Below, in pieces: positions 40,566 to 60,033 of a stretch of 64,000 nucleotides of DNA (within the stretch, counting starts at the first letter, position 1; each line of letters begins with the position of its first letter). The notes below the pieces were generated by a model. That model saw only the letters and a list, made by a program, of their open reading frames with translations, was not told the origin of the DNA and did no database searches. The translations under genes were made by a program, and so were the position numbers. The stretch is from NCBI GenBank assembly GCA_041178085.1, contig JBEGVZ010000026.1, forward strand, positions 1 through 64,000, written 5' to 3'. The stretch is from Pseudomonadota bacterium (GTDB taxonomy: Bacteria > Bdellovibrionota_B > Oligoflexia > Oligoflexales > RGVZ01).

Positions 40566-40581
40566 CCGGATGGCCCGGGGT

Positions 40582-44105: not shown

Positions 44106-44132
44106 TAAAGTTTTTCGCCAAAATTCCGATAA
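44106..44132 (+). promoter_or_regulatory. Sigma28 (FliA)-like promoter
   Basis: TAAAG-N15-CCGATAA, near-consensus, 54 bp before ATG 44187. Confidence 0.65.
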
Positions 44133-44186: not shown

Positions 44187-45389
44187 ATGGTTGCAAAGCG
44201 GAAACTGTTATCGTTGTGTCTAGTCATTTCAGCTACCGGGATTTCGTGTAAAAGCCTGGATGTAAGTCCCGATTCCGCTGACGTGAAAACCCTGGAAAAT
44301 TTCGCTGCCGGTGAGACGATCATCGAGAATGCTTGTGGCGCGGACCGCCTGTCTGATCCGATTGACGACAACGTAGCCGGGCTGATTGAGGGTCTGAGCC
44401 TGGTTCAGGCCAGTGAAAGCCGCAAGGAATCGCTGGCGACGGCAATGGGCTCCATGCCGGTGAACCTGCTGAACCTTTATTTCGCGACGGGCAATCGTAT
44501 CGTCGTCTCGGACAAAGCCTTCGACGGCAAGTCGGACGAAGGCATTGATGACTGCCAGATTGCCCGGCGTCAGGGCAGGGTGCTTGACGGGCGCGTCCGC
44601 ATTTCCGGGCGTCCTGAGCTCGAATCCTGTATCGTTTCGGAGAGCCAGGGCGACGGCCAGGTCCGCCTAGGCATCTACATCAAAGACAACGATGCTGCGA
44701 TCCGTCATGCGCTTGTACGCAGGATGAGCCAGGCAGTATCCATGCACCTCTCCCGCCTGGTTGCGGATCAAGAGGGCAAGCCTGCAATTGGTGAGTTTGA
44801 AGACGAATCTTTCGTGGGCTGGAAGTCTTCCCTTCTTACAGCCCTGGACAAGGACATCGCGGCGTTGCCAGCTGCTTCGACCAGCAATTACCGGAAGTTG
44901 CGTTCAAGTCTCAAGGCAGCTGAACTTGGCCATTACGCATTTGCCGAGGCGATGGACTCCTTCTACTGCAGTTCACGGACTCGCGAAAACATGAAAGCAA
45001 AGTTTCCAAGCGCCCATGCTGGATTCCTCGAACTGGACGCCGAACTTCGTCAGATCTGGTCCGAGCAGTCCCTCGATACGAAATCGACAGAGCTTGCCCT
45101 CGGTCCAGTCGGTCGGGTCCTTGTCGGTGCCGGGCGAGTCGGGATGTTTGCCGCGCGCGGAGTCGGCCGGGTAGGATATGGTGCTGCCCGCGTTGGTGCT
45201 GGTGTGGTTCGTGGCACCGGACGTGTTGCCTTCGGTGCAGCACGGTTCGCCGCTCGTGGAACAGGTGCTGTGATTCGCGGCGGTGCGAATGTGATCCAGG
45301 GCGTCGGTTCCGGAGTTAGCAACGCGATTGAGTACCGTCGTGGCTCCGGTTACGTGTTTCCCCGCATGCACGGTGTCTATCGTCGCTAA
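44187..45389 (+). CDS. Lipoprotein with ATLF/LFn-like domain and Gly/Arg-rich C-terminal tail (paralog of 58394-59848)
   Basis: Lipobox GISC. MPVNLLNLYFATGNRIVVSD and FAEAMDSFYCSSRTRENMKAKFPSAH blocks. ELAL followed by a 95-aa tail. Confidence 0.7.
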   Translation: MVAKRKLLSLCLVISATGISCKSLDVSPDSADVKTLENFAAGETIIENACGADRLSDPIDDNVAGLIEGLSLVQASESRKESLATAMGSMPVNLLNLYFATGNRIVVSDKAFDGKSDEGIDDCQIARRQGRVLDGRVRISGRPELESCIVSESQGDGQVRLGIYIKDNDAAIRHALVRRMSQAVSMHLSRLVADQEGKPAIGEFEDESFVGWKSSLLTALDKDIAALPAASTSNYRKLRSSLKAAELGHYAFAEAMDSFYCSSRTRENMKAKFPSAHAGFLELDAELRQIWSEQSLDTKSTELALGPVGRVLVGAGRVGMFAARGVGRVGYGAARVGAGVVRGTGRVAFGAARFAARGTGAVIRGGANVIQGVGSGVSNAIEYRRGSGYVFPRMHGVYRR

Positions 45390-45410
45390 AATCCAGGGTT
45401 GAAGTATCCT

Positions 45411-45869
45411 TCAGGCCGACAGTTGCTGCTTGCGTCGCACCGCGTCGGCCCATCTAGTCTTCTCTTCCCCGGTTTCCGGTGTGAACGGCACAAGTTCCAC
45501 CGGATTCCTGTTTTCATCCACGGAAACCATATAAAAAAAGCAAGTCATCACGTGGCGGCACTCGCCGTTTCGAGGATTCTCGGTGACCACCTTGATGCCG
45601 ATTTCCATCGATGTCTTGCCAACATAGTTAACCCGGGCCATGAACGTGGCAAGCTCGCCGACATGCACGGGCTGCTTGAATACCACCTTTTCCACCGCGA
45701 GAGTGACGGCATAACGCCCCGAATAACGGACAGCACAGGCGTATGCCACCTGGTCCAGTAACTTCAGCATTGCCCCGCCGTGCACGTTGCCAGAGAAATT
45801 CACCATGTCTGGCGTCATCAGAACCGTCATGTTCAGGTCGCGGGATTTGATTGATTCTTGATTCGCCAC
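45411..45869 (-). CDS. Acyl-CoA thioesterase (hotdog fold, YciA-like)
   Basis: NFSGNVHGGAMLKLLDQVA, F.QPVHVGE, GKTSMEIG. Confidence 0.92.
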   Translation of the reverse strand: MANQESIKSRDLNMTVLMTPDMVNFSGNVHGGAMLKLLDQVAYACAVRYSGRYAVTLAVEKVVFKQPVHVGELATFMARVNYVGKTSMEIGIKVVTENPRNGECRHVMTCFFYMVSVDENRNPVELVPFTPETGEEKTRWADAVRRKQQLSA

Positions 45870-45909
45870 GGGTACCTCCGGGGTTAGCTACTGGCACTTT
45901 GTCACGCAA

Positions 45910-45994
45910 CCCAAGTGGTGATCGGATGCGTTCCAGAAAATATGAGGTTCACCTCCCTGAAACCGGCAGCGGCAAGCTTCCGATGCACCACGGG
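45910..45994 (-). ncRNA. Candidate structured RNA / leader of unknown family
   Basis: Nested complementary segments forming a multi-stem rod (see findings). Confidence 0.3.
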
Positions 45995-46109
45995 AAATAG
46001 TTAAATTTCGGTCATTTGCCAAAACTTAGATGCCACCAGCAAGTTTACCTGCTGCCGGATCAACCGATACACACACTGGATTCCTTTTGAACCGTGCGGC
46101 CGTGATAGG

Positions 46110-47072
46110 GTGGGAGTGGTGTCGAATCAATCAAAAAACCAGCTGTCGTCACCGCAGATCCCTGCGAAGATCGGCCCCTACAAGGTCGTCGGGGAGATCG
46201 GTTCGGGGGGGCTTGGGCGGGTTTTTCGTGGTGTCGACGAGCGTAACGGAAACTCTGTTGCGATCAAAGTGCTGCACGACAAGTACGCACGCAACAGCAA
46301 GTTCCTTGGCATCTTCCATCGTGAATTGCTGATTGTATCCAGCCTGCACCACAAGCATATCGTCAGCTACCTGGGAAGTTTCTTCAATCCACCCAATTGC
46401 TACATCGTCACAGAGTTTGTGGATGGATGGTCAGGATATGCTTTCCTCAAGCTGGTGAAGAGAGTGCCCCCCCTGGTGGCATTATGCATCGTGATCGACA
46501 TGCTTCAGGGCATCGATCACCTGCACTTGCACGACACCATTCACTCGGATCTTTCTGCAGCAAACTACCTTGTCGATAAGCGTGGTCGCGTGCTGGTCAC
46601 GGACTTTGGGCTGGCTTGCCGTCTTGAAGTTGAGGACTACCGCAATTACATGATCGGAACCCCGGGATACTATTCGCCTGAGCATATTTCGAACGAGCCG
46701 ATCGTCCAGCAAACTGACATCTATTGTGCGGGGCTGATTTTATTTGAGCTGATAACGGGCCAGAAGATCGTGCCGGCATCGTCTGATCGCTTGCAGACCA
46801 TCGAACTGATGCGCCGTCTGAAGGTGACAACCCTTGGCCTGATGGACAAGAAGATGGACAAGGCGTTGTGCCAGCTGATCCGTACCGCCTTGCAATTTAG
46901 TGTTTCCCGTCGCTACCAGACGGCAGACCTGATGATGTTTGCTTGTTATGAGATCTTGAAACGTTACGGGATCCGATACGCACGACACGCGATCAAGCGC
47001 TTCCTGGTTGATCAGGCAATGGTCCCCGGGCCATATGAAGGCCACGAACAAAACATCTACCAGGGCCTGTAA
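46110..47072 (+). CDS. Hanks-type Ser/Thr protein kinase (kinase domain only)
   Basis: IGSGGLGRVF, VAIKVL, HRE, IHSDLSAANYL, TDFG, GTPGYYSPE, TDIY. Confidence 0.9.
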   Translation: MGVVSNQSKNQLSSPQIPAKIGPYKVVGEIGSGGLGRVFRGVDERNGNSVAIKVLHDKYARNSKFLGIFHRELLIVSSLHHKHIVSYLGSFFNPPNCYIVTEFVDGWSGYAFLKLVKRVPPLVALCIVIDMLQGIDHLHLHDTIHSDLSAANYLVDKRGRVLVTDFGLACRLEVEDYRNYMIGTPGYYSPEHISNEPIVQQTDIYCAGLILFELITGQKIVPASSDRLQTIELMRRLKVTTLGLMDKKMDKALCQLIRTALQFSVSRRYQTADLMMFACYEILKRYGIRYARHAIKRFLVDQAMVPGPYEGHEQNIYQGL

Positions 47073-48781
47073 TCATATAAAAATAACGTCCGGTGGCAAC
47101 TGGCGAGGGGATCCGATCCGACCTCCAGGGTGTTACCCAGGCTTCCGTCCGGTTTTACGCAAAGCATTTCGACTCCGGCCGGAGCGAATGCCTCAAAGCG
47201 CGGCGGGCGATCCTCACTTGTCAGAAGCGAAATGCCAGGTAATTTGCGAAACGTGGAGGCGTCCACTGACTGCCACTTGCCTGCTCGCGTGAATTCCGCG
47301 TCGCGGGTGATGCCGCGGATCTGCTGCACCGAAGCATCTGGCCGGTGTAACTTGATCATTGCAGTCCACTGGTATTTGTCGACGAACAGTGGTGTGTTGC
47401 GCTGGTTCCATCTGCCGGCAACAAAGTTTGCAATCGAACTGAATCCGCTGGTTTCCTCGCTGATGCGATCGGGCTTGCTGGAGATAGCGGCGCGGAGTTG
47501 TGGCTGGATCGCAAGCGTGGCGATGGCCAGCAGGATCAAAGCATTGCCAATGCCAGCCGGAAGCAGGGAGTGTTCAAGTCGGGGTTTTCGCTCTTCGCCC
47601 AGCGACCACGCAGGATGCAGGGCAGCGAGGATAGCAACTCCCGCAAATCCCATCGCTGGCCAGTTGGCTTCGACTTTGGTGAACGGTGCGAACAAGCCAA
47701 AGAATGCAAAGGGAACCCAGGCTGCCAACCTGGTGAGTGCCAGGGCCGGATCAGGTTTTTCTGACCTTGCCACTGGGCGCCTTGTTCTGCGTTCCCGGAA
47801 AATCATGATCGCTGCAGCCGGCAGGAGAAGTCCGGGAGCAGCTAGCTGACTGCCGAGGTATTCCCAGAACCATTTCGCACCTTGTTCCAGCTTTCCCTTC
47901 GTCCGCCTTGGAGGCGCCGGTTTGACCACTGCGGATCTTTTGCTGAGCACGGCATCGTATTGGGAGAAAAAACCAGCGAGTCTATCGTCCAGGCGGGAGT
48001 AAGGCAGTCGCGAAGGGGCTGGAGGTGGCTCAAATCCATCCTCCAGGGGGGCAGCTCCGTGATCACCGGCAAAACCATGGCGCAGCTGGAAGCCGAAAGT
48101 AGCCCATTGGTGCCGGGCGTTCCAGATCACGTGCGGCGAGAATACGAGTACCGCTGTCACCGTGGTCAGTGCGAAGGCACTGGCACGCCTTGTCAGCGGG
48201 ACTGTGCGCAGTGAGCGGTTGAAGAGCAGCATCCATGTGAAAATCAATGGCATCAGGGCAAAGGTATATTTTGCCAGCATCCCCAGACCGAAAAAGATTC
48301 CACAGGTGATCGCATTGAGCACGGGAAGCCGTTCCAGCGGTTTCATCAAACCATCGATCACCAGGATCGCGGCCAGCAGGGAAGCCGTCCAGAAAACCAT
48401 CAGGAATGCATCTGGAGTCAGCAAGACGCCACTGGCAATTCCGGCAAAGCTTGCGCAGAAAATGAAAACAGCAAGAGTTGGCTGCCGGGCTCCGAGGCGC
48501 CTCGCTACGGCATGCAGAGAGGCCGGAATGATCAGAGATGCAAGAAGTACCACTGGCAGGCGCATGATAAGGGGATTTGCAGAAAATTCTGGGCCAGCAA
48601 GGTCGCGTAACAATCCACCCAGGGCAACCATCGGCGGGTGGTCGAAATATCCCCATGAAAGATTTGTTGACCAGATGGCGTAATAGGCTTCATCCGTCGT
48701 AACGGGAAGTACGGCGGCAACCAGAAACCGGATCGCAAGCACGGCGACGACCCACAGCCATAAACGGGCGGACGGGATCAT
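47057..48781 (-). CDS. ArnT/GT39-like membrane glycosyltransferase
   Basis: DEAYYAIW...WGYFDHPPMV, TPDA, GLGMLAKYT, PHVIWN, EANW. Many TM segments. Confidence 0.88.
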   Translation of the reverse strand: MIPSARLWLWVVAVLAIRFLVAAVLPVTTDEAYYAIWSTNLSWGYFDHPPMVALGGLLRDLAGPEFSANPLIMRLPVVLLASLIIPASLHAVARRLGARQPTLAVFIFCASFAGIASGVLLTPDAFLMVFWTASLLAAILVIDGLMKPLERLPVLNAITCGIFFGLGMLAKYTFALMPLIFTWMLLFNRSLRTVPLTRRASAFALTTVTAVLVFSPHVIWNARHQWATFGFQLRHGFAGDHGAAPLEDGFEPPPAPSRLPYSRLDDRLAGFFSQYDAVLSKRSAVVKPAPPRRTKGKLEQGAKWFWEYLGSQLAAPGLLLPAAAIMIFRERRTRRPVARSEKPDPALALTRLAAWVPFAFFGLFAPFTKVEANWPAMGFAGVAILAALHPAWSLGEERKPRLEHSLLPAGIGNALILLAIATLAIQPQLRAAISSKPDRISEETSGFSSIANFVAGRWNQRNTPLFVDKYQWTAMIKLHRPDASVQQIRGITRDAEFTRAGKWQSVDASTFRKLPGISLLTSEDRPPRFEAFAPAGVEMLCVKPDGSLGNTLEVGSDPLASCHRTLFLYDYRPW

Positions 48782-51063
48782 CTGAGCGCCTTGCGCAGTC
48801 GTTCGATCAATTGTGTCTGGCGCTTTGCAGAGACCTGGTTGCGAACAGCATGGCCAAGCGCACGCTTCGAGCCGACAAAGATCGCAAATTTCCGGGCCCG
48901 GGTCAGGCCTGTGTAGATCAGGTTGCGTTGCAGCATGATGTAGTGCTGCATTGAAACCGGGATCACGACAGCCGGGAATTCACTGCCTTGCGACTTGTGA
49001 ATCGTGATTGCGTAAGCCAGGCGCAGGTCGCCGGCCTCCTCATTGCCGTAGGCGATCAGGCGTCCATCGGGGAACGCCACCAGGACTTTTCCACCGTCAA
49101 CGCCAGCTTCCTGGACAAACCCGATGTCGCCGTTGAAAACGCCGAGGTCGTAGTTGTTGACGAGCTGAATGACTTTGTCGCCCTTGCGGAAGTTGCGCTT
49201 GTTACTCCCTGGCGATGCCCCACGATCCGGGTTCAGGAGTCTTTGCAGTTCGTCGTTGAAGGTTTGTGTCCCCAAGTCACCGCGGTTCATCGGCGTCAGC
49301 ACCTGAATGTCTCGCACCGGATCCAGGCCGAGTTTCGCCGGGATTTCCTCTGCAACCAGGCGCTTCACTGTGGTCAAGACGTCTTCCGCGGTGTCGACTT
49401 CGATGAATTGGCAGTCGCTGGGCTGTCCAGAATTGTCACTGAATTCCGGTTCCTGTCCGCGATTGATCGTGTGGGCGGTGCGGACGATGTGTGACTCGTT
49501 TGCCTGACGGAAGATTTGATCCAATTTGATGAATGGAACTTGCCGGCACTCAATCAGGTCACGAAGGACGTTGCCTGGTCCTACCGACGGCAGCTGGTCA
49601 ACGTCCCCGATCAGTACGAGCTGGGACTTGTCTGGCAGGGCCTTGACCAGGCTCGCCATGAGGCGGACGTCAATCATCGAGGCCTCGTCGATGATGATCA
49701 CCTGGGCATCGAGTGGATTATCTGCCGAACGGGTGAAACCGCCCGCTGCAGGCGCCCACTCGAGCAGGCGGTGGATGGTCTTGGCTTTTTCCGCAGCCAC
49801 TTCGCTCAGTCGCTGCGCTGCGCGACCGGTCGGTGCTGCAAGTGCAACTTTTTTGCCCATAGCCTTGAACAGGCGGATGATCACATTGGCGGTGGTGGTC
49901 TTGCCGACGCCAGGTCCACCGGTCAGGACAAAAATGCCGCTCTGTACAGCGTGTTTCACTGCCTGTAGCTGGGCCTCGCTCAAAGTTGTCCCAGAGGCAG
50001 CAATGTAACGCGTCACCCAGTTCTCGATGCGCGCCGGGTCAACTTCCACGGGGTGCTCGAGGAGTCGCGCGATGCCCGCTGCCACGTCGGCCTCTGCGGC
50101 CATGAGTTCACCGCGGTAATGCCCTTCGGCCTTTTCCCCGGTCGGTGAGAAAGTGTTTTCCGTGATCACCGCGCCTGAGTTTTGCAATGCGCGCAGTTCG
50201 CCCTCAAGGCGCATCCCAAGTTGTGCCTCCGGCAAGTCGAGTGTCTGCGACAGGCCAGAGGAAAGCTGTGGGCTGGTCAGGTAGCAATGCCCTTTTTCCT
50301 CCGCTTGTTGCAGCTGGTACAGGATTGCTGCGCGGACGCGCTGCGGTGAGTCTTTGGCAATTCCAACATTGAGCGCAATGGCATCGGCTTTCAGGAAGCC
50401 GATTCCGTGCAGGTCTTCGGCCAGTCGATAAGGGTCCGTGGACACGATCTCGATCGTCGCTGCGCCGTATAGCTTGAAAATCTTCCGGGCGAAATTTGGC
50501 GTGATGCCGTGCTGGTTCAGGAACATCATCACATCTGCTGCAGCGCGTTGTGATTGCCAGGCGTCGATGATGACCTGGGCTTTCTTGCGCGCGATGCTCT
50601 GGACCTGGGTCAGGCAAGCCGGGTTTTCGTCAAGGATCTTGAACGTGTCCTCGCCGAAGTGGGCGACGATCTTTTCGGCGGTCTTTTCGCCGATGCCCTT
50701 GATCAGGCCAGAAGACAAATAACGGATCATCGCCGGCCTGGAGGTCGGTCGCACTGGCAGCGCCCGCTCAACCTTGAACTGGCGGCCATACTGGGGGTGA
50801 AAACTCCACGTTCCTGTGAACTGGAACAGTTCCCCGGCGCTGATATCAACGAAGTGCCCGGTGGCCGTCACTGTGACGTTGGTGCTGGTGTCGCGCACCC
50901 GCAGGACACTGTAGCCGTTTTCCTGGTTGGCGTAAGTGACGCGTTCCACTTCCCCGCGCAGGGTCGAGGAGGCACCTGCCTCAGCGCGCAGTTCCGCGTC
51001 GGTACGACCTTCACGGCTATACCCGGCAGGGGGTGGGGGTTGCTGGTTGTCAAACGGTGTCAT
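48778..51063 (-). CDS. recD2: ATP-dependent RecD-like DNA helicase
   Basis: N-terminal OB/HhH region (HPQYGRQF, GIGEKTA, GIGFLKAD), GGPGVGKTT, DEASM, GDVDQLPSVGPG, YAITIHKSQGSEF. Confidence 0.95.
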   Translation of the reverse strand: MTPFDNQQPPPPAGYSREGRTDAELRAEAGASSTLRGEVERVTYANQENGYSVLRVRDTSTNVTVTATGHFVDISAGELFQFTGTWSFHPQYGRQFKVERALPVRPTSRPAMIRYLSSGLIKGIGEKTAEKIVAHFGEDTFKILDENPACLTQVQSIARKKAQVIIDAWQSQRAAADVMMFLNQHGITPNFARKIFKLYGAATIEIVSTDPYRLAEDLHGIGFLKADAIALNVGIAKDSPQRVRAAILYQLQQAEEKGHCYLTSPQLSSGLSQTLDLPEAQLGMRLEGELRALQNSGAVITENTFSPTGEKAEGHYRGELMAAEADVAAGIARLLEHPVEVDPARIENWVTRYIAASGTTLSEAQLQAVKHAVQSGIFVLTGGPGVGKTTTANVIIRLFKAMGKKVALAAPTGRAAQRLSEVAAEKAKTIHRLLEWAPAAGGFTRSADNPLDAQVIIIDEASMIDVRLMASLVKALPDKSQLVLIGDVDQLPSVGPGNVLRDLIECRQVPFIKLDQIFRQANESHIVRTAHTINRGQEPEFSDNSGQPSDCQFIEVDTAEDVLTTVKRLVAEEIPAKLGLDPVRDIQVLTPMNRGDLGTQTFNDELQRLLNPDRGASPGSNKRNFRKGDKVIQLVNNYDLGVFNGDIGFVQEAGVDGGKVLVAFPDGRLIAYGNEEAGDLRLAYAITIHKSQGSEFPAVVIPVSMQHYIMLQRNLIYTGLTRARKFAIFVGSKRALGHAVRNQVSAKRQTQLIERLRKALR

Positions 51064-51240
51064 CCGACATTCCCCAGTGGCTGGCATCAGCATGGCTATC
51101 CATTGAAAACGATTAATGAAAGTGCTGCCTTTTTGCAAGGCACAAGAATTTCCCTAAGGGTTACCGGGGGTGGGCCGACAAGAAATCTGTAGGGTTTGTC
51201 GGTTTGCCAACTTGTGGATATGGACCTGAAGGAGCTTTTT

Positions 51241-51678
51241 ATGCAATTCCGCTTTGCTTTCAAGCACATGGAGACGTCCCCCGCCCTGACCCGTTACGCC
51301 GAGGAGAAAATTCTCGACCGGGTCCAGAAGTTTGTCACAAAGCCCATCGAGGCCCACGTGACTTTTACCGTCGAACATCTAAGCCACTCGGCCCACTGCT
51401 CTTTGCACGGGGGTGATGGCTTTAACTTGGAGGTGCAGCACGTTTGCGGGGACATGTACGGGTCGATCGACCACATGGTGGACAAGCTCGCGACACAGCT
51501 CAAACGCCACAAGGAAAAGTTGAAAGGACATAAGTCAAAGCGGCAGCTCCGGCTGCTGGATCCGATGGACAAGAACTATGCGTTCTCCTCCAAAACGGAA
51601 TTTGACATTGATTCGGAGCCGGTAGACGCCGAGGACATCCTGAAATTTGAGATGGCCCGGCGGCGAATGGCGCGGTGA
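51241..51678 (+). CDS. hpf: Ribosome hibernation promoting factor (HPF/RaiA)
   Basis: KHMETSPALTRYAEEK, DMYGSID...DKL..QLKRHKEKLK. AAGGAG RBS. Confidence 0.9.
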   Translation: MQFRFAFKHMETSPALTRYAEEKILDRVQKFVTKPIEAHVTFTVEHLSHSAHCSLHGGDGFNLEVQHVCGDMYGSIDHMVDKLATQLKRHKEKLKGHKSKRQLRLLDPMDKNYAFSSKTEFDIDSEPVDAEDILKFEMARRRMAR

Positions 51679-51770
51679 TAAGACCGCGTTGCCCCGCGGT
51701 CCTGGCGTACGGGAATGCGCCGGAACCGTTGATTGACCTCGTCCGGTCATTTGGGGCGTGTAAAACGATG

Positions 51771-51808
51771 GGGCAGGACCGCAGCATTGGTCCTGCCCTG
51801 TCATTTTT
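51771..51808 (+). terminator. Possible terminator hairpin after hpf
   Basis: GGGCAGGACC-N8-GGTCCTGCCC followed by TGTCATTTTT. Confidence 0.45.
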
Positions 51809-51849
51809 CCCGTGAGAATTTGCCGGCGATCGTGGTACCCACTTCGTCC

Positions 51850-52557
51850 ATGAAATCCGCCGACGAGTACAAGCTCATTTCCCCCGGTCAGAATGCCCTG
51901 GAACCATCGTGGAATGCTCGGCTGGCCCGGGTGTTCTCCCAACCCTTCATGAATGATTTGAGGGAATTCCTGCGCCGTGAACATGCATCCGGCAAAAAGA
52001 TTTTCCCCCCTGCCCAGGAGATTTTTGGGGCTTTTGACTCTTGCCCTTTCGACCAGGTAAAAGTCGTTATCCTGGGACAAGATCCCTACCACGGTCCTGG
52101 ACAGGCCCACGGCCTTTGTTTCTCCGTTCGCAAGGGCACACCTGTGCCGCCCTCCCTGCTTAATATTTTTAAGGAAATCCGGGATGAGTTCGGTTGCCTT
52201 CCGCCCAAAGATGGCGACCTCACGGCGTGGGCCAGGCAGGGCGTTCTGCTGCTCAATACGGTTCTGACGGTCGAGGCTGGTAAACCGGAAAGTCATCGTG
52301 ACCGGGGCTGGGAAAAATTCACGGACGAGGTCCTTGATGTCCTTAACCGGGAGCGTGAAGGGCTGGTTTTTGTGTTATGGGGCTCACACGCACAGGCCAA
52401 GGCCCGGCTCATTGACCCGGCGCGTCATCTGATCCTGAAGGCGCCACATCCTTCGCCTCTGTCCGCCTACCGTGGTTTTTTCGGTTGCGGGCATTTTAAG
52501 AAAATCAACGAATGGCTTGTCGCCCGCGGCGCTTCGCCGATTTGCTGGGTGCCTTGA
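51850..52557 (+). CDS. ung: Uracil-DNA glycosylase (family 1)
   Basis: VILGQDPYHG, QAHGLCFSV, PPSL.NI, QGVLLLN, LWG, HPSPLS. Confidence 0.97.
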   Translation: MKSADEYKLISPGQNALEPSWNARLARVFSQPFMNDLREFLRREHASGKKIFPPAQEIFGAFDSCPFDQVKVVILGQDPYHGPGQAHGLCFSVRKGTPVPPSLLNIFKEIRDEFGCLPPKDGDLTAWARQGVLLLNTVLTVEAGKPESHRDRGWEKFTDEVLDVLNREREGLVFVLWGSHAQAKARLIDPARHLILKAPHPSPLSAYRGFFGCGHFKKINEWLVARGASPICWVP

Positions 52558-52781
52558 TTTGCGATTCCTTTCCCTTTGCAGACTTTCTTTTTTGGGAAAG
52601 GTCAGAGCCAAAATTGGCATTTTTGCAACATCTGGCCAGAACCCTTGTTTGCGGCGTGGTTTCCCTTGATTTTGACGGCGTGAAAATCTTGGCCAGCTGG
52701 ACAACAAATTTTGCCTACCCGTATAATTTTGAATGAATCCCGGACAATCTTCCTGAACACGCCGACTTTTTGGGGGTTTTC

Positions 52782-54926
52782 ATGCGCCTGTTAACCATGT
52801 GCCGCACCCACTGGCTGGTTTTCCCGGCAATTATTGCCGCGCTGACCGCGACTGTCGTTTCAGCAGCTCCGCTGAAAACATTCAACCTCGACAAGGAGCA
52901 TGTCCCTGGCCAGCTGATCGTGAAGTTTAAGCGTGGCGCATCGGCCGAGAAATCCGCACTGGGCGTGCTGGCAGGTTATGGTGCATTCAGTGCCATTCCG
53001 TTCTCGCGGACTGGTGCGATGAAGGTAACCTTTCCGGGCAAGGAGTCTCGCAACTCACTGATGGCCGTTGCGCAGCAAATTGCGTCACGCCCTGACGTCC
53101 TGTACGTCGAGGCGAACACCATCATTCGCATGGATGCAAAATTCCCCAACGACCCCAACTTTGCGCAACTCTACGGCATGCACAACGATGGCTCAACGGG
53201 CGGCACTGCAAATGCAGACATCAACGCTCCAGAGGCGTGGGAAGTTTCGACGGGTTCGAAAAATGTTGTGGTTGGCGTGATTGACACAGGTATTGATTAC
53301 ACGCATCCAGACATTGCCCCGAATTACTGGACCAACCCGGGCGAGACGGGAACAGACAGCGAAGGCCGCGACAAGCAGACCAACGGCGTTGACGATGACA
53401 ACAACGGTTATGTCGATGACTTCCGCGGCTGGGACTTCGTCAACAATGACAATGATCCGATGGACGACAACAGCCATGGTACCCACTGTGCTGGCACCAT
53501 CGGCGGCAAGGGCAATGACGGGGTCGGTGTGGTCGGTGTCAACTGGGACGTCAGCCTGGTCGGGATCAAGTTCCTCTCTGGCGGCGGTTCTGGAACCCTC
53601 GAAGACGCAGTCAAGGCGATTGAGTACGGGACAAAGATTGGCGTCCAGTTGACCAGCAACAGCTGGGGCGGCGGCGGCTTCTCCGACACCATGGCAGCGG
53701 CGATTGCCGAAGCGCAGTCAAAAAACATCCTTTTTGTCGCCGCAGCCGGTAACAGCAGCGCTGACAACGACTCTGACCCGCATTATCCATCTTCGTACGA
53801 TCACGATAACGTCATTGCAGTTGCAGCAACTGACAACAAGGACGGCATGGCTTACTTCAGCTGCTTCGGTTCGACGAGTGTTGACCTTGGCGCACCAGGC
53901 GTGGACATCCTCAGTTCGATTCCGGAAGGTCACGGTTACACCAAATACAGTGGAACCTCGATGGCGACCCCGCATGTGGCAGGAGCCGCTGCACTTGTGA
54001 AGTCAGCATTTCCTGAGCTGAATGCTGCTCAGGTCAAGGCTCGCCTTCTCAATGGCGTTGACCAGGTCCAGTCTCTGCAGGGCAAGACGACCACTGGCGG
54101 TCGCTTGAACCTGGAAAACTCTCTTGAAGTAGACTCGATTGCCCCTGGCGCGGTTGCCGGGATCCGGGCAGTAGGTGCTACCAGGGATTCGGTCACCTTC
54201 AATTTCACTGCGACCGGCGATGACGGCGACTCCGGCCTTGCGAAGGGCTACGAGGTCCGTATTTCATCGACGCCGATCACCGATGCAGAGGGCTGGGCAG
54301 CTGCACGGCGCGCCAAAGCTTCTTTTTCGGTCAATACAGACACTCGCGAAGCTTCGGTTGTGATTTCGGGTCTTGATTTCAACAGCCAGGGATACCTCGC
54401 GATTCGTGCGACGGATAACGTGGGCAACATGAGCAGCCTTTCTGCTCCGGTACCCTACGCGGTGCGCCAGGTCCAGGTCGTCGCCCGCAATACGGCCAGC
54501 TCGCTGGCTGACGTCGTCGCCACTGGTACATGGGGCGTTGAAGATGCACCAACCAGTGAGGATCCAGACAACAAGGTGTTCTCTGACAGCCCCGGCGCTG
54601 ACTACCCGTCCAACAACGACACTAGCCTGACGCTGCCAGTATGGAACGTCTCCAAGTCTGATTCATCGCTTGTCGTACGCATGCGCTGGAACCTCGAGAA
54701 CCGTTATGACAACGGATCCGTGGAAGTATCCACGGACGGCACGACATGGACCGCGCTTGACACACTCACTGGTGATAGTGGTTGGGTCACGCGGCAGTAC
54801 GACCTCTCGGGCGTACTGGCATCGAGCCAAACGCTCCAGGTCCGCTTCAAGCTGACATCAGATTCATCCATCGACCGCGACGGATGGTTCATCGATGATG
54901 TGATGGTGGTCAGTTCGATCGACTGA
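52782..54926 (+). CDS. Secreted S8 serine peptidase with FN3-like and beta-sandwich C-terminal domains
   Basis: Signal peptide, propeptide (VPGQLIVKFK), VIDTG / HGTHCAG / GTSMATP triad, DDDNNGYVDD insert, DGWFIDDV terminus. Confidence 0.93.
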   Translation: MRLLTMCRTHWLVFPAIIAALTATVVSAAPLKTFNLDKEHVPGQLIVKFKRGASAEKSALGVLAGYGAFSAIPFSRTGAMKVTFPGKESRNSLMAVAQQIASRPDVLYVEANTIIRMDAKFPNDPNFAQLYGMHNDGSTGGTANADINAPEAWEVSTGSKNVVVGVIDTGIDYTHPDIAPNYWTNPGETGTDSEGRDKQTNGVDDDNNGYVDDFRGWDFVNNDNDPMDDNSHGTHCAGTIGGKGNDGVGVVGVNWDVSLVGIKFLSGGGSGTLEDAVKAIEYGTKIGVQLTSNSWGGGGFSDTMAAAIAEAQSKNILFVAAAGNSSADNDSDPHYPSSYDHDNVIAVAATDNKDGMAYFSCFGSTSVDLGAPGVDILSSIPEGHGYTKYSGTSMATPHVAGAAALVKSAFPELNAAQVKARLLNGVDQVQSLQGKTTTGGRLNLENSLEVDSIAPGAVAGIRAVGATRDSVTFNFTATGDDGDSGLAKGYEVRISSTPITDAEGWAAARRAKASFSVNTDTREASVVISGLDFNSQGYLAIRATDNVGNMSSLSAPVPYAVRQVQVVARNTASSLADVVATGTWGVEDAPTSEDPDNKVFSDSPGADYPSNNDTSLTLPVWNVSKSDSSLVVRMRWNLENRYDNGSVEVSTDGTTWTALDTLTGDSGWVTRQYDLSGVLASSQTLQVRFKLTSDSSIDRDGWFIDDVMVVSSID

Positions 54927-54952
54927 GTGCCAGTTAGGTTTTCTGGCAGATT

Positions 54953-54982
54953 AAAGCCCGGGTTTCAGGCCCGGGCTTTTTT
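54953..54982. terminator. Bidirectional intrinsic terminator
   Basis: AAAGCCCGGG-tttcagg-CCCGGGCTTTTTT between convergent genes. Confidence 0.8.
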
Positions 54983-54986
54983 GCGT

Positions 54987-55733
54987 TCAGTGCTTGTCCC
55001 AGCAGGATTCGACTTCGATCTTGGTGAAGAACTTGGCGCGGCAGACAGCGCATACGTACTTGGCGCCATCGCGAAAAAACTTCTTGTTGGGATCCTTGCC
55101 CTTTGCCGCCTGGTTGCCATTATTGGCATCCTTTGTCCGTGCGTCCGTCATTCCATTTCCTCCATGAGTCTGGTTGCTCTTCGTAAGGGGTTTGTAACCC
55201 GTTGCGATCGCTGCCGCGTGCTTCAATACGGCCTTGAACAACGGCTTGATGATTTTTTGATCAAGAAGCCGGTTGTGTATCTGGAACGGCATCAGTGCCG
55301 TTCTTGACATCTCATGAAGTACCACAGGACTGACCGTCCGCGCACTGATCGTGAAAGGCAGTTCCATTTTTTTCACAGCCGTAGAAAGCGTCTTCACAGT
55401 TGCCTGGCTGGCCTCTTGGTTTGCGTCCGCGACCATGGTTTCGGAGCACTGCTGTGCACAAGCTGTTGCGTCTGCCGGGTCGGCATACTCCCGCTTGCAG
55501 AAGCGGCAACGATGAAGAACGAACATGCCTTTACGAATCGCAACAGTTGGCTGGGCGTGGAGCTGTGTTTCCCAGCAGCCCTCAACACAAATCGAGGCGG
55601 CAGACCACGTCGGGTGAAGGGCCCGGCAGATTCCGCAGTAGAAACCGCCAGCGGTCGGTACCACCCGTTTGATGATGGTAAAGGCTCCGACGGCATCGGT
55701 GGCGGTTTGATGCCCTTTTTTGAACAATCCCAA
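54987..55733 (-). CDS. Protein with three zinc-finger-like Cys motifs
   Basis: CGIC-x12-C-x3-C, CRFC-x12-C-x3-C, CAVC-x12-C-x3-H. TTG start after AAGGAAG. Confidence 0.65.
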   Translation of the reverse strand: MGLFKKGHQTATDAVGAFTIIKRVVPTAGGFYCGICRALHPTWSAASICVEGCWETQLHAQPTVAIRKGMFVLHRCRFCKREYADPADATACAQQCSETMVADANQEASQATVKTLSTAVKKMELPFTISARTVSPVVLHEMSRTALMPFQIHNRLLDQKIIKPLFKAVLKHAAAIATGYKPLTKSNQTHGGNGMTDARTKDANNGNQAAKGKDPNKKFFRDGAKYVCAVCRAKFFTKIEVESCWDKH

Positions 55734-55759
55734 TGGCGCTTCCTTTGCTAATAAGATTG

Positions 55760-55786
55760 CTTTCGGATATTCCGTTCCCAGCCTGA
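55760..55786 (-). promoter_or_regulatory. Sigma28-like promoter
   Basis: TCAGG-N15-CCGAAAG on the minus strand, upstream of the zinc-finger gene. Confidence 0.45.
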
Positions 55787-55919
55787 GTGGCAGGTTCCAA
55801 GTTACCGTAACTATTGGATTAAGTTGTTTCGCTGCACTTGCAAAAATGACAGGGGGTGGTGCCGGTTGCCCTGGCTCCACCCCCAAATGATTCGTGCGCG
55901 CGTTTCGAACGATACCTGC

Positions 55920-58175
55920 TCAGTTTTCCTGGAATGCGACGTCTGGGATCACTTGGCTTTGCAGCAACCGGACCGTGAAAGAGGAGCGGCCTGCTGGCAC
56001 GGACTTCATTTTCGTCTTGCCGGACCACGTGAGCGAGTGCTGAAGGCGGTCATGGTTCCAGGAGGACCATTTCTCCTGGAAGTACCAGGCCGCCACAACT
56101 TTGCTGGTCTCAAATTTCTCAGCATTCTGGATCGTAACTCCACCAAGGCGCTGGTTTGCCGTGATGGTGATGGATTCGTCGTCATGGGCGTTGACCTGGA
56201 GTGCGCCTTTCTGTTCGGGCGCATTGGCCTGTGTCAAGAGTTCCTCCAGGGTGTAGGTCCTGGCGATCCGGCTGAAGTTTATCCGCAAACTGGCTTTTTC
56301 TTTTGCCGTCGGTGCTTCCCGCGAGGCCAGCAACTCGGAGATTTCAGACTCTTGCTTGCCCCACACATAGAACGCCCAGTTGAAGGGATTCCACTTGGAT
56401 TCGTAAACGTAGGCGCGGGGACCTGCGAGTTCGTTCGGGGTGTATTCGTTGATTCTCCGGCCCCAGTCGACAAGCTGCGGGAACTCAAGGCTGACACCGT
56501 CACGTTGCTGGACCTCAAGCAGTCCAGCCTTTGAGAAATAGACCGGATCTTTCCTGGAAATTTCCGGGCGGAAGAGCTTCCGTTCAGGAACGATGATCGT
56601 CAGGGTCTGGTCCTTATCGAGTTCGACGCCGAGATTTTGGGCTTCGACGCCAGAACTCACTTCCATTGTGCGTTCGTCGGCAGATCCCACCTTCCCGGAG
56701 ATCATCCGTGAGCGCGTGGTAGCAGTTTCGGACACAAGTTTGCCCAGGATCCGGTACTGGATTTTGGAATCTGTTTGCGAGCGCAGGAAATCGATCACAG
56801 CAGACACTTTGAACGCCATCGGTGCGAGCGGATTGCGGGCAGGCTTTTTAGCTGCAGGTTGCTCGTCTTCCGCATCATCCTCTGACCTGCCGGCTTTTGG
56901 TTTTTCTTCAGCTCCCGATTCAGTCGTTTTTTCCGCCTTTTTTTGATCTTCATCTGCTGCCTGGTTTGCAGTCAGAGATGACGTGCCCCGGATCACCCGG
57001 TCACGAATGCTGGATGAAGGACGGTCGACGTCCCACGGATCCTTCTTTTTTACTTTTTCCTCGTTGTCTTCTTCGTCATCTTCTTCGTTATCGTGCGTGG
57101 TTCTGCGGGAATCACTGTTTCTGCGATCAGTTTCGCGGGTGGTTTTGCGGCGGGTGGTTCCGCTGGAGTCTTCATCATCGCGGTCGTCCCGTATCGTGCG
57201 GGATTTGTTGGCATCAGCCGCCATAAGTTTTTCCGGGCTGATTTTCTCCATCATCATCTTGATCAGGGCGTTTGCTGCTTCAGAAAGTTGGTCGGAGTCC
57301 GACTCGATGACTGCCTCTGCGCTGGTCGTGCGGATTGCGTCCGCCAGCTTTGATTTCAACTCGGACTCAAGCACAACGCCTGCATTGACCGGGCCATCGT
57401 AACCAAGGCTGGACTGAAGTGCGCTGGCAACAGCTTTGCCGTTGAACGTCATGCTGCCAAATTCGCGGGTCTCCCGCGCTTCGAATTTGAGCGATGCCAC
57501 CAACTGGATGCCCAGGCCGCGGCTGAGCTTTGAGAGCATGCGCTGGGAGTCCGGTTTGCTGAGCTCGATGGTTGAGCTGATTGTCTCGCCCAGCCAGGTC
57601 GTGAGGTCTGTCCCGTCCGGAGAAAGCATCACCGGTGTTCCGATCCCGTCGATGCGCATCTCGATGTTTGTGATTGGCAGTGGCGACAGAGACCAGACTT
57701 TGTTTTCCGGCTGCTTTAGCTCTTCGTAGTGCTTGTTGATCGAATCCCGCAATTTGGTGAAGTTACATGTATGGGCGAAGCGCTCGGACTCAGTCGGGCC
57801 ACCGACGATGTTTCGTGACTCGGTGCCGCGATGGAGGTTGACGGCAAAGTCGAATGCGATGTTACCGTTGTCCAGGGGCAGCAGCTTGATCGATGTCTTG
57901 TTTTCAAGGTCCCGTGCCAGAGTGACTTTCGGGATCACGAAGTAAGTACCACGGAAGCGCTGGGTTCCCTGCAGGATGTGGTAGTTACAGTCGATTGCCA
58001 CATCTATGGGAACGGGGTCGAAGGAGACTCCGTCCGCCGCCAGGCGTGCGCCATCTTTGTTTGCGAAGTCTGCGGGGCCTCCGCAGCTGCTCAGGTTGAT
58101 ACTCAGGATTGTAGCCAGGATCAGGAATGGCCTGGTTGCTGTCACTGTCGCCTTGGAACCGAGGACGCTGCGCAT
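55920..58175 (-). CDS. Large hypothetical lipoprotein with central charged low-complexity region
   Basis: 751-aa ORF with lipobox LSSC and GGAG RBS. No family recognised. Confidence 0.7.
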   Translation of the reverse strand: MRSVLGSKATVTATRPFLILATILSINLSSCGGPADFANKDGARLAADGVSFDPVPIDVAIDCNYHILQGTQRFRGTYFVIPKVTLARDLENKTSIKLLPLDNGNIAFDFAVNLHRGTESRNIVGGPTESERFAHTCNFTKLRDSINKHYEELKQPENKVWSLSPLPITNIEMRIDGIGTPVMLSPDGTDLTTWLGETISSTIELSKPDSQRMLSKLSRGLGIQLVASLKFEARETREFGSMTFNGKAVASALQSSLGYDGPVNAGVVLESELKSKLADAIRTTSAEAVIESDSDQLSEAANALIKMMMEKISPEKLMAADANKSRTIRDDRDDEDSSGTTRRKTTRETDRRNSDSRRTTHDNEEDDEEDNEEKVKKKDPWDVDRPSSSIRDRVIRGTSSLTANQAADEDQKKAEKTTESGAEEKPKAGRSEDDAEDEQPAAKKPARNPLAPMAFKVSAVIDFLRSQTDSKIQYRILGKLVSETATTRSRMISGKVGSADERTMEVSSGVEAQNLGVELDKDQTLTIIVPERKLFRPEISRKDPVYFSKAGLLEVQQRDGVSLEFPQLVDWGRRINEYTPNELAGPRAYVYESKWNPFNWAFYVWGKQESEISELLASREAPTAKEKASLRINFSRIARTYTLEELLTQANAPEQKGALQVNAHDDESITITANQRLGGVTIQNAEKFETSKVVAAWYFQEKWSSWNHDRLQHSLTWSGKTKMKSVPAGRSSFTVRLLQSQVIPDVAFQEN

Positions 58176-58309
58176 GCGGACTCCGTGTTTGGTGTTTATG
58201 ACGAAGCGCGCGCAACGTATTATTTCTATTAGTATAAGTAAAGTATTTTATTGATTTACTTTTAAGTATTATAAATTTAAGTGTAAATACCTGATTTTAT
58301 TAGATAATT

Positions 58310-58344
58310 AAAAACCCCAAGTTCAGAGGAACTTGGGGTGTTTT
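58310..58344 (-). terminator. Intrinsic terminator of the 58394-59848 gene
   Basis: ACCCCAAGTTC-agag-GAACTTGGGGT hairpin with a U-run on the minus strand. Confidence 0.75.
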
Positions 58345-58393
58345 CTTCAGAGGCCGATCGGATTCCGCAGTATTCACCCGGTTTTCGGGAGAT

Positions 58394-59848
58394 TCAACCT
58401 CCCGTCATGACGGTACAGCTGCCACAAGAACCCCCGACGCCCCCCTGGCAAGATGAGCAGTCTCCTCCGCAGGCCATGCCGCCACCACAGTTGCCGCTAC
58501 CGCAGTTGCCTCCAGAACACCCGCTGGCTGCCAGGTTGCTAAAGATGCCGGCGTTCTTGCCCAGCTGGCCCGGGTTGATGCGATTTGCTTGCGGCGGCAT
58601 CAGGGATGGCAGGCCGCCACCGCCGCCGCCCCCACCGCCGAGCAATTGGCTGAACAGGGATGACAGGTTGCCGAGGCCCCCCGCGCCGCCGCCCCCACCG
58701 CCAAGCTGCCCCAGCAGCGGCATGAACATTTTCATCAAACTACCGATGTCGAAATTCAGGGCGAGTTCATTCTCTTTCGCTAAGGTGGGATCTGATCCGT
58801 CAAGGGCGAGGAAGCCGCTGCGCACTTCTCCCGGAGGGGTCGCGTTTCCCGTAAGTTCACGTGAAATTTGCAGCAGCGCCTGGTGCACCTGGTCGTAAAC
58901 CTTGTAGGAAGACGGGAAGTCGGCCTTCATCACGGCAAGCGACTCGCTGTTGCAGCTGAGTGATTGCTCCGCATGGGCAAGGAAGTAATCCCTCACCTGG
59001 CTGCGGCGCGCTTCAACGATTCCGGAGTCGAGTGTTCGCGATTCTCCGGCTCGCCTGAAGCTGACCAGATCAAGCAGCGAGGTTTTCGATTTTGCGGCAC
59101 GCAATTCAGATTCCACCTCTTCACCCATGATTGGTTTCAGCGGTGCAAGAGTGTACTTTTTCGATGCAAGGAGGTCGGCCAGGAACGCGTCAGCCAGTTG
59201 TTCCTTGAACGACACAAACTGCATGCTTTCTTTCTGGTTGATGCTGAAGCTGGCACCTTGCCTTGTTGGCGCGGCAAAGCGCGAGTAAAGCTGCGCGTAC
59301 AGGTAACCGAAGATTTGTGGTCCAAAGTAACGGATACGATCCGGGGAAGCGCTGTGGACAATCGTGAAGATCGTTTTCTGGTTTCCCTGCGGGTCGTCAG
59401 CGAAGACGAAGCAACCGTCAGTGATGTCTCCCGTCGTCTGCCCGCTGGCAGTCTGGGCGTTCTTGCAGTAGTCGCCAATTTTTGACGGGTCAGTGATCAT
59501 CACCTGGCCGCCAAGGGTGAGAAAAAGTTTCTGCATCGCCGGGTCGAGCGCAGAGAAGTAGTCTCGAACCGCTTTTTTCAGGGAGGCCTGTTCCTCGCTC
59601 CCCCTGCTCTGCAGGGAACTGCTCTTATCGAGGACGATCCGGTTATCGGGAATCAGAACCTCATTGTTGCCTTTGCATTGGTAAAGCTTGGTGATGCCAC
59701 CAGCTGCGACGGCATCCAAGGTCTTTACGGAGGAATCCTGGGACGCTTTGCACGATGCCAGGAACGAGCCGGCGAGTATCCCGGCAGCTGCAACCTTTAA
59801 CAGACCCGAAAACCCATTGGTGTCGGAAATTGTCGAGCGCTTGCCCAT
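58394..59848 (-). CDS. Lipoprotein with ATLF/LFn-like domain and Gly/Cys-rich C-terminal tail (paralog of 44187-45389)
   Basis: Lipobox LASC. LDPAMQKLFLTLGGQVMITD and FLAHAEQSLSCNSESLAVMKADFPSSY blocks. ELAL followed by a 120-aa tail. GGAGG RBS. Confidence 0.7.
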   Translation of the reverse strand: MGKRSTISDTNGFSGLLKVAAAGILAGSFLASCKASQDSSVKTLDAVAAGGITKLYQCKGNNEVLIPDNRIVLDKSSSLQSRGSEEQASLKKAVRDYFSALDPAMQKLFLTLGGQVMITDPSKIGDYCKNAQTASGQTTGDITDGCFVFADDPQGNQKTIFTIVHSASPDRIRYFGPQIFGYLYAQLYSRFAAPTRQGASFSINQKESMQFVSFKEQLADAFLADLLASKKYTLAPLKPIMGEEVESELRAAKSKTSLLDLVSFRRAGESRTLDSGIVEARRSQVRDYFLAHAEQSLSCNSESLAVMKADFPSSYKVYDQVHQALLQISRELTGNATPPGEVRSGFLALDGSDPTLAKENELALNFDIGSLMKMFMPLLGQLGGGGGGAGGLGNLSSLFSQLLGGGGGGGGGLPSLMPPQANRINPGQLGKNAGIFSNLAASGCSGGNCGSGNCGGGMACGGDCSSCQGGVGGSCGSCTVMTGG

Positions 59849-60033
59849 GTCTTGATTGCCTCCCCCGGTTTAACAAAACTTGTCTGATCGTTTCGGTTTA
59901 TCGGTCGATAAACTATAGCGGCGCCGGAGCGATCTAATTTTCTCCAACAAATACAGTGATTTGCCTGTACGTATTATCTGCGCTTTGGGCTGGTCGTTGT
60001 GGTGGCGGGTCTGAGCGGGGGCGAGTGCCCCGA

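Follow-up and report, generated by a model that had tools for sequence, protein, structure and literature searches.

The 64,000-nucleotide stretch of DNA analyzed here (the window; positions 1 to 64,000 of contig JBEGVZ010000026.1, assembly GCA_041178085.1) encodes two lipoproteins, open reading frame 1 (ORF1) and ORF2, that belong to a family of relatives of anthrax lethal factor (LF) and the PPEP-1 peptidase. We show that its ancestor was an HExxH zinc peptidase of the ATLF/PPEP-1 type, that the family no longer has the metal site but retains the fold and four cysteines, and that it has expanded into paralog clades. Tail-bearing members place a low-complexity linker with a short motif, and then a tail whose class follows the clade, behind this core. 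An earlier note on this DNA had located both ORFs and the tetrapeptide ELAL in each, and these positions proved correct:

44106..44131, + strand: predicted sigma-28 (FliA)-type promoter before ORF1, TAAAG-N16-CCGATA
44187..45389, + strand: ORF1 (P0001), lipoprotein of 400 amino acids (aa), Arg/Gly amphipathic-tail clade
44187..44249, + strand: ORF1 signal peptide and lipobox Cys21, predicted from sequence; Cys in 6/6 orthologs
44247..45065, + strand: ORF1 pseudo-protease core of modeled ATLF fold, residues 21-293, with Cys50, 123, 148, and 261
44718..44732, + strand: position of the zinc motif in ORF1, RRMSQ (family consensus R-x-F-G-Y), from profile alignment to HExxH relatives and column counts
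45090..45101, + strand: ORF1 ELAL, residues 302-305, an instance of the [FLM]-[ASGN]-L linker motif
45102..45386, + strand: ORF1 tail, 95 aa, cationic (+14), Gly/Arg amphipathic, with 7/11/18-residue periodicity
58314..58339, - strand: terminator-like hairpin after ORF2
58394..59848, - strand: ORF2 (P0002), 484-aa lipoprotein, Cys-rich-tail clade
58397..58756, - strand: ORF2 tail, 120 aa: amphipathic helix, Gly runs, 8-Cys end
58757..58768, - strand: second ORF2 linker motif, ELAL, residues 361-364
58802..58810, - strand: first ORF2 linker motif, LAL within GFLAL, from the sequence and with counterparts in orthologs
58847..59752, - strand: ORF2 pseudo-protease core of modeled ATLF fold, lipobox Cys33 to about residue 334
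59303..59317, - strand: position of the zinc motif in ORF2, QIFGY
59891..59917, - strand: weak sigma-28-type promoter match before ORF2, off consensus in both boxes

Core fold and loss of the zinc site

ORF1 and ORF2 are distant paralogous lipoproteins, as the earlier note proposed; their pairwise similarity is weak but real. BLASTP aligns them at 31 bits (E = 5e-5; 23% identity over 334 columns), and none of 500 shuffles (mean, 33.5; maximum, 57) reached the core alignment score of 73. Profiles built from the two ortholog groups match with a probability of 97.1 (E = 6.2e-11). The alignable part ends near residue 293 of ORF1 and residue 332 of ORF2, and an unalignable linker follows, which contradicts the claim that similarity stops exactly after ELAL. 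The tails score 34 against each other, a value equalled or beaten in 390 of 500 shuffles, and so are unrelated, as had been claimed. Searched singly against Pfam, NCBIfam, and PDB sequences, neither ORF1 nor ORF2 gave a named match.

The core spans ∼270 aa, and Foldseek pairs its AlphaFold model (predicted local distance difference test score [pLDDT], 87; predicted template modeling score, 0.85) with LF (E = 3.8e-5) and PPEP-2. In a comparison with 48,161 chains the model scored highest against Certhrax (Z = 11.9; root mean square deviation of 3.9 over 183 aligned residues), the N-terminal domain of LF (LFn; Z = 11.6 and 11.5), PPEP-2 (11.1), edema factor (EF; 11.0), and PPEP-3 (10.4). Below these LF/PPEP-like chains came one zincin at 8.2, and then a drop to 5.3. 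The ESM Atlas likewise gives ATLF clusters for the core. On the strength of this model, the core has the ATLF/PPEP-1 fold.

Direct sequence matches to known ATLF proteins are sparse. Our core profile, A4, has 85 rows (an earlier profile had five); among PDB sequences it matches only residues 34-85 of LF, with a best E value of 0.0085. Pfam ATLF (PF07737) is touched by 9 of the 85 cores at E ≤ 0.1. Its curated cutoff of 27.4 bits is exceeded by neither ORF1 nor ORF2, which gave no match, nor by any of 60 full-length members (best, 25 bits); one member stretch, G038:C14, just clears it at 27.6. PF07737 matches 26 of 131 genomes, all within a single order. From 12 of the matching loci, nine ORFs passed a filter for HExxH, and seven of these entered an alignment. 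The alignment of these HExxH-bearing lipoproteins matches the family profile with a probability of 95.6 (E = 1.2e-8), and HExxH-bearing lipoproteins of the order match PPEP-1 at E = 1e-19. Because they match both, they join the family to PPEP-1 by sequence, and they are likely the active sister family of the dead core. The family has its fold in common with PPEP-1, PPEP-2, and these lipoproteins, and the latter share with it a FAEAF-x3-C...FP-x-T-Y end. HExxH-bearing ATLF/PPEP-like lipoproteins (L150, L152, and L155-L159, from other genomes of the order) are apparently undescribed in the order.

Unlike these HExxH-bearing relatives, the family carries long, variable tails, and the positions of both zinc-binding His residues and of the catalytic Glu are replaced. 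HExxH is absent from ORF1 and ORF2 and from every core counted (0/85 and 0/147). The third zinc ligand position holds Glu in 72% of the 85 cores and in ORF1, and His in ORF2. The four non-lipobox Cys residues are present in 205, 206, 207, and 207 of 207 cores and probably form two disulfides; the lipobox column is Cys in 177 of the 207 rows, the remaining 30 being alignment gaps. Thus, the model, the Foldseek and fold searches, and the sequence bridge bear out the earlier proposal of an ATLF/LFn-like fold without HExxH, as the counts do the conservation of the four cysteines. Since the nearest sequence kin are the local HExxH lipoproteins, loss of the zinc site looks independent of, and probably was separate from, the loss in LFn.

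The family comprises 610 clusters at 50% identity when collected with the core profile at E ≤ 0.001, and 327 at 1e-30. The five-row profile matches 42 of 95 genomes of the order, and A4 matches 49 of the 131 genomes in a sample of the phylum. All but two of these (47/49) belong to one order, which we take to be Oligoflexales, and the family appears almost confined to it. Its distribution is patchy, and copy number spreads widely among genomes. The source genome (3.0 Mb, 96% complete) has six copies: the endings of five all differ, and a contig end truncates the sixth. Besides ORF1 and ORF2, these are C21 (641 aa, with a long helical tail), C68 (helix, Pro linker, and CAP domain), C22 (core only), and C10 (the truncated copy). 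After three of 150 representatives without the anchor column were dropped, 147 were analyzed: 114 bear tails of at least 45 residues, and the other 33 stop no more than 25 residues past the core, a short [DQEL]-[FL]-G ending closing 24 of these. The core-only clade forms one branch of 41 rows (e.g., L137:2492-3403), ends in [DQEL]-[FL]-G or GKAWF, and lacks the promoter described below; its members are possibly partners or chaperones of the tail-bearing forms. The literature searched, in which subscription journals were thinly covered, yielded no paper on this lipoprotein family and none that treats ATLF together with Bdellovibrionota; the lipoprotein family with a dead ATLF core is apparently undescribed.

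Linker motif and tails

Tail-bearing clades share a linker of low complexity that carries the motif G/S-[FLM]-[ASGN]-L one to three times. The earlier note had seen ELAL as a shared, conserved motif; ELAL occurs in 3 of 114 linkers and in a single ORF2 ortholog out of 18, with none in the 5 orthologs of ORF1, a rarity that rules it out as the family motif. What is common instead is the looser pattern [FLM]-[SAGN]-L, with 110 occurrences in 85 of the 114 linkers versus 37 ± 5.5 in 300 shuffles (maximum, 51), preceded by Gly or Ser in 59%. F-x-L occurs 55 times in the same linkers versus 22 after shuffling. Other spacings and the reversed motif reached z scores of at most 2 in linkers, and [FLM]-[SAGN]-L showed no excess in tail or core windows. 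Across the last motif, net charge rises from −2.6 to +3.6 (n = 17) in one of the two short-peptide clades and from −1.6 to +2.8 (n = 10) in the other, a count that leaves out 9 of 26 Arg/Gly members lacking the motif by the strict rule. In the AlphaFold model of core plus linker, the motif has a pLDDT of <50, which weighs neither way on its docking in the core.

A broader role for the motif, as a genome-wide secretion signal, was tried and rejected, since other lipoproteins are not enriched in it. Sought there with a position-specific scoring matrix, it was seen 11 times versus 12 to 16 times after shuffling, at low power (the matrix recovered 1 of 5 of its own members). A search by patterns gave 55 versus 46.8, with one of six patterns at a z score of 2.3.

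Lag 11 is the best period in 13 of 26 Arg/Gly tails like that of ORF1, and lag 7 in 12. Periodicities of 7, 11, and 18 residues occur in lipid-binding amphipathic helices. The prediction that tails would be hypervariable among homologs held in part: in ORF1 orthologs the tail is as conserved as the core (55 to 86% versus 58 to 76% identity), whereas in ORF2 orthologs it is more variable (18 to 42% versus 42 to 60%), with its layout kept. Pfam searches of 56 long-tailed representatives found Tox-ART-HYD1 (E = 5e-12), RamC_N (E = 2e-22), CAP, TSP3, and a weak PT-TG; most tails had no match. Among 16 C-terminal pieces, two match TNT at E = 1e-4, below the cutoff, and one matches an alpha/beta hydrolase; in addition to the two TNT matches, a third piece lies near TNT by the Atlas (0.92). 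The tails of the family include cationic amphipathic and Cys-rich peptides as well as CAP, ART, TNT-like, and lipase domains. P0068 ends in a RamC_N domain, similar to the N-terminal lyase domain of class III-IV lanthionine synthetases, with the rest of the synthetase missing. At L047:1387-2559 the tail apparently forms an ORF of its own, 29 bases downstream, and G057:C17 has an internal TAG near the end of the core.

Tails follow cores. They are similar in 79% of pairs with >60% core identity and in under 1% of pairs with <25%. Sorted by rule into eight classes, the tails require 36 changes on the FastTree tree of the cores (207 rows) versus 127 with shuffled labels; because kin share labels, this reflects inheritance, not coevolution. 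The 83 tail clusters obtained with BLAST exaggerate diversity, because low-complexity tails of a single type fall into several clusters, and we did not take them as a count. In the long clade, the extreme end of the tail is truly polymorphic: members share a helical region and differ at their C termini, which carry different enzyme-like domains or none. All nine matches of the WGRWG tail fell in ORFs already known as cores, and the ORF1 tail has no short stand-alone homolog; the check for orphan tails covered these two types. In four runs of one study, ORF2 contigs differed by point changes and by the in-frame loss of 6 bases from the Gly run, and among the rows listed there was no joint at either ORF2 motif that would mark tail exchange between strains. 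Free cassette swapping at the motif was rejected on the stability of tails within clades and the lack of orphan tails (two types). Of the polymorphic carrier-plus-cargo family that the earlier note envisaged, a carrier with variable cargo stands at family level, and free swapping does not.

The WGRWG peptide itself, ∼45 aa rich in Trp, Arg, and Gly, directly follows the motif in L065, L042, L071, and L073; it is 60 to 93% identical across three families of the order, with one copy per genome. It is a good candidate antimicrobial peptide.

Promoters and gene neighborhood

A sigma-28-type promoter precedes 25 of 76 tail-bearing members and none of 14 core-only members, versus 1/76 on the opposite strand and 2/76 in coding sequence; a looser first pattern gave 29/90. 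In the source genome, which contains fliA, such a site lies before 29 of 262 predicted lipoprotein genes and 17 of 1,519 cytoplasmic genes, with gene classes taken from a rough in-house caller. These counts suggest a FliA regulon turned to exported proteins. For Bdellovibrio, the promoter passages of one study give the consensus TTAAG-N16-CCGATA and place the motif at 92 of the 140 promoters of the attack phase (PMC3627812).

ORF1 and ORF2 lie on opposite strands, 13 kb apart, and each looks monocistronic; a thioesterase gene converges on ORF1. Among 52 members with at least 500 bases available downstream, 13 have a same-strand ORF close by. Inspection by eye of these 52 loci, and of the regions after toxin-like ends, found no recurrent or immunity-like downstream gene. 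Neighbors are common only to close relatives, and neither maturation enzymes nor shared operon partners were found beyond genus-level synteny.

Several genes in the window deserve mention. At 55920-58175 (- strand), a predicted 751-aa lipoprotein that matches no Pfam entry and is charged and of low complexity in its middle adjoins ORF2 orthologs in L113 and L115 as well; in related-strain contigs this gene shows far more changes and small gaps than the genes flanking it. The C terminus of a subtilase (S8) at 40570-42507 (+ strand) consists of Cys-Gly, followed by a hydrophobic stretch and then basic residues. It resembles anchors on the family tails P0078, P0159, P0162, L141, and L142 and is a possible sorting signal. 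Between ORF1 and ORF2, a second subtilase-like gene (52770-54926, + strand), assigned by sequence motifs, is a putative candidate for a protease that cuts after Leu.

Function of the dead-core lipoproteins

We tentatively favor the view that the family is a lineage-specific, lipid-anchored carrier with a dead core, whose tails act on other cells in parallel and are freed or exposed at the linker motif in trans. The Sec/lipoprotein route would take these proteins to the outer membrane; the dead core would serve as the constant carrier, and the tail as the working part against prey or competitor cells. This part would be a membrane-binding cationic amphipathic helix in ORF1, a helix plus a Cys-rich peptide in ORF2, and, in the long clade, a putative helical pretoxin region with a replaceable terminal enzyme. 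Because the core cannot cut by a zincin mechanism, the motif is most likely read in trans, by a protease or export factor that would free or expose the tail. Expression of many tail-bearing genes would belong to a sigma-28 program, which in Bdellovibrio is that of the attack phase. The lack of a conserved downstream partner in the 52 loci fits targets that are not kin.

Several points weigh against this view. The motif pattern was picked after the sequences had been viewed, 18 of the 114 tail-bearing members lack it even in its looser form, and the residue following it is not fixed. Predation by the uncultured hosts is assumed from their phylum. The sigma-28-type site is shared by 29 of 262 other lipoprotein genes, and our positive control failed: none of four flagellin genes carries the site, so the link from promoter to attack phase is borrowed from Bdellovibrio. 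Toxin-type or enzyme Pfam matches over the cutoff lie at the C terminus of only 2 of the 56 long-tailed representatives (ART and RamC_N), and none of the six copies in the source genome has an enzymatic toxin tail (C10 being cut by the contig end). The CAP and TSP3 domains and the membrane anchors at the C terminus of some tails are more in keeping with surface display than with released toxins.

The proteins might be displayed uncleaved, with the core as a stalk, the tails as adhesins or modules for recognizing prey or host, and the motif as a strand on which an export or assembly factor docks. The CAP, TSP3, and transmembrane anchors would suit such display, as would the stability of tails within clades over long distances; we consider it rather unlikely, given the switch from acidic to cationic exactly at the motif in the peptide clades and the cytoplasmic targets that ART and TNT-like enzymes would need. 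Another possibility is that the amphipathic tails bind the producer's own membranes as 11-mer lipid-binding helices and shape its envelope or vesicles, the core being a peptide-binding scaffold and the toxin-like ends a side branch. The 7/11/18 periodicity of the ORF1 tail, the best lags of 11 (13 tails) and 7 (12 tails) among 26 such tails, the single-copy conserved tails, the 33 of 147 members that are core only, and the fact that immunity would not be needed all point this way. The patchy occurrence (49/131 genomes), the large spread in copy number, and at least eight tail classes on one core make such a role improbable.

The layout also recalls known toxin systems. In the sections of a review that deal with them, the Amoebophilus prodomain effectors APD1 and APD2 combine a signal peptide and lipobox with a lineage-specific constant N-terminal domain and diverse C termini, some lipase-like, thought to be deployed in parallel; its authors expected further such cases (PMC3482391). 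The source genome brings together the same lipobox, lineage-restricted domain, and diverse C termini. Unlike APD1 and APD2, to which we liken it by layout, the family has a recognizable dead ATLF zincin, a linker motif, many short peptide tails, a core-only clade, and Oligoflexales hosts. MafB-N toxins, as covered in parts of the same review, also share its layout, and the review's passages on ALF-type peptidases treat these as HExxH toxin domains, not as dead carriers. Myxococcus SitA, as portrayed in parts of another article, is likewise a lipoprotein with a constant N-terminal domain of escort size and variable C-terminal toxin domains (PMC8546572). Kin-discrimination toxins of the SitA kind, passed by outer-membrane exchange and diversified by serial cassette swapping at the motif, would fit the lipobox, the constant domain with variable C termini, and the variable terminal enzymes of the long clade. 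We think such toxins very unlikely here. According to those passages, sitA genes always accompany a sitI immunity gene and carry nucleases; here we found neither, and most tails are not enzymes. Moreover, no conserved small gene lies downstream in the 52 loci or after toxin-like ends, all nine matches of one tail type sit on a core, and tail class follows the core tree. By its layout, the dead-core family would work like APD and SitA carriers; it is not an active ATLF peptidase and is probably no SitA member.

LFn lacks HExxH and docks on protective antigen (PA), and the earlier note drew the comparison with LFn as a docking adaptor. On an account of this kind, the core would dock on a PA-type pore and thread the tail into target cells. 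The PA-binding domains of Certhrax, LF, and EF, which share with the family an ATLF fold without HExxH placed N-terminal to variable cargo, are indeed the top fold matches, and LFn residues 34-85 are the sole PDB sequence match of the profile (E = 0.0085). PPEP-2, however, is within 1 Z of the PA-binding domains, the nearest sequence kin are the local HExxH lipoproteins, and family members, unlike LFn, EF, and Certhrax, are lipid anchored and have four conserved Cys residues. No PA-like pore gene was found: PF17475 matched 0 of 95 genomes in a search whose control was also silent, and neither PF17475 nor PF03495 was found in the 96%-complete source genome. We regard pore docking as the least credible of these explanations.

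Returning to the carrier we favor, a bolder form of it, which we hold doubtful, is that an order within a predatory lineage, independently of Bacillus, made a dead LF-type protease the universal, lipid-anchored escort for gene-encoded membrane-active peptides and enzyme toxins, cut at G-[FL]-[ASG]-L by a dedicated protease within a sigma-28 attack program. Immunity proteins would be dispensable, since at no point would the producer's cytoplasm contain free cargo. If true, this would be a new route of effector delivery and a source of antimicrobial peptides with a readable leader.

Little is known to date of the means by which Oligoflexales kill other cells or interact with them. With a constant, searchable carrier domain and a boundary motif, candidate effectors and peptides can be listed directly, in 610 clusters in which most tails have no Pfam match. 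The family also provides a second, apparently independent case of an ATLF fold without a metal site in front of cargo, with active relatives in the same order, and so bears on how LFn-type domains arise. In these relatives of predatory bacteria, a membrane-anchored, disabled LF-type core may serve as a scaffold for delivering its many different tails, among them some that resemble antimicrobial peptides or toxins.

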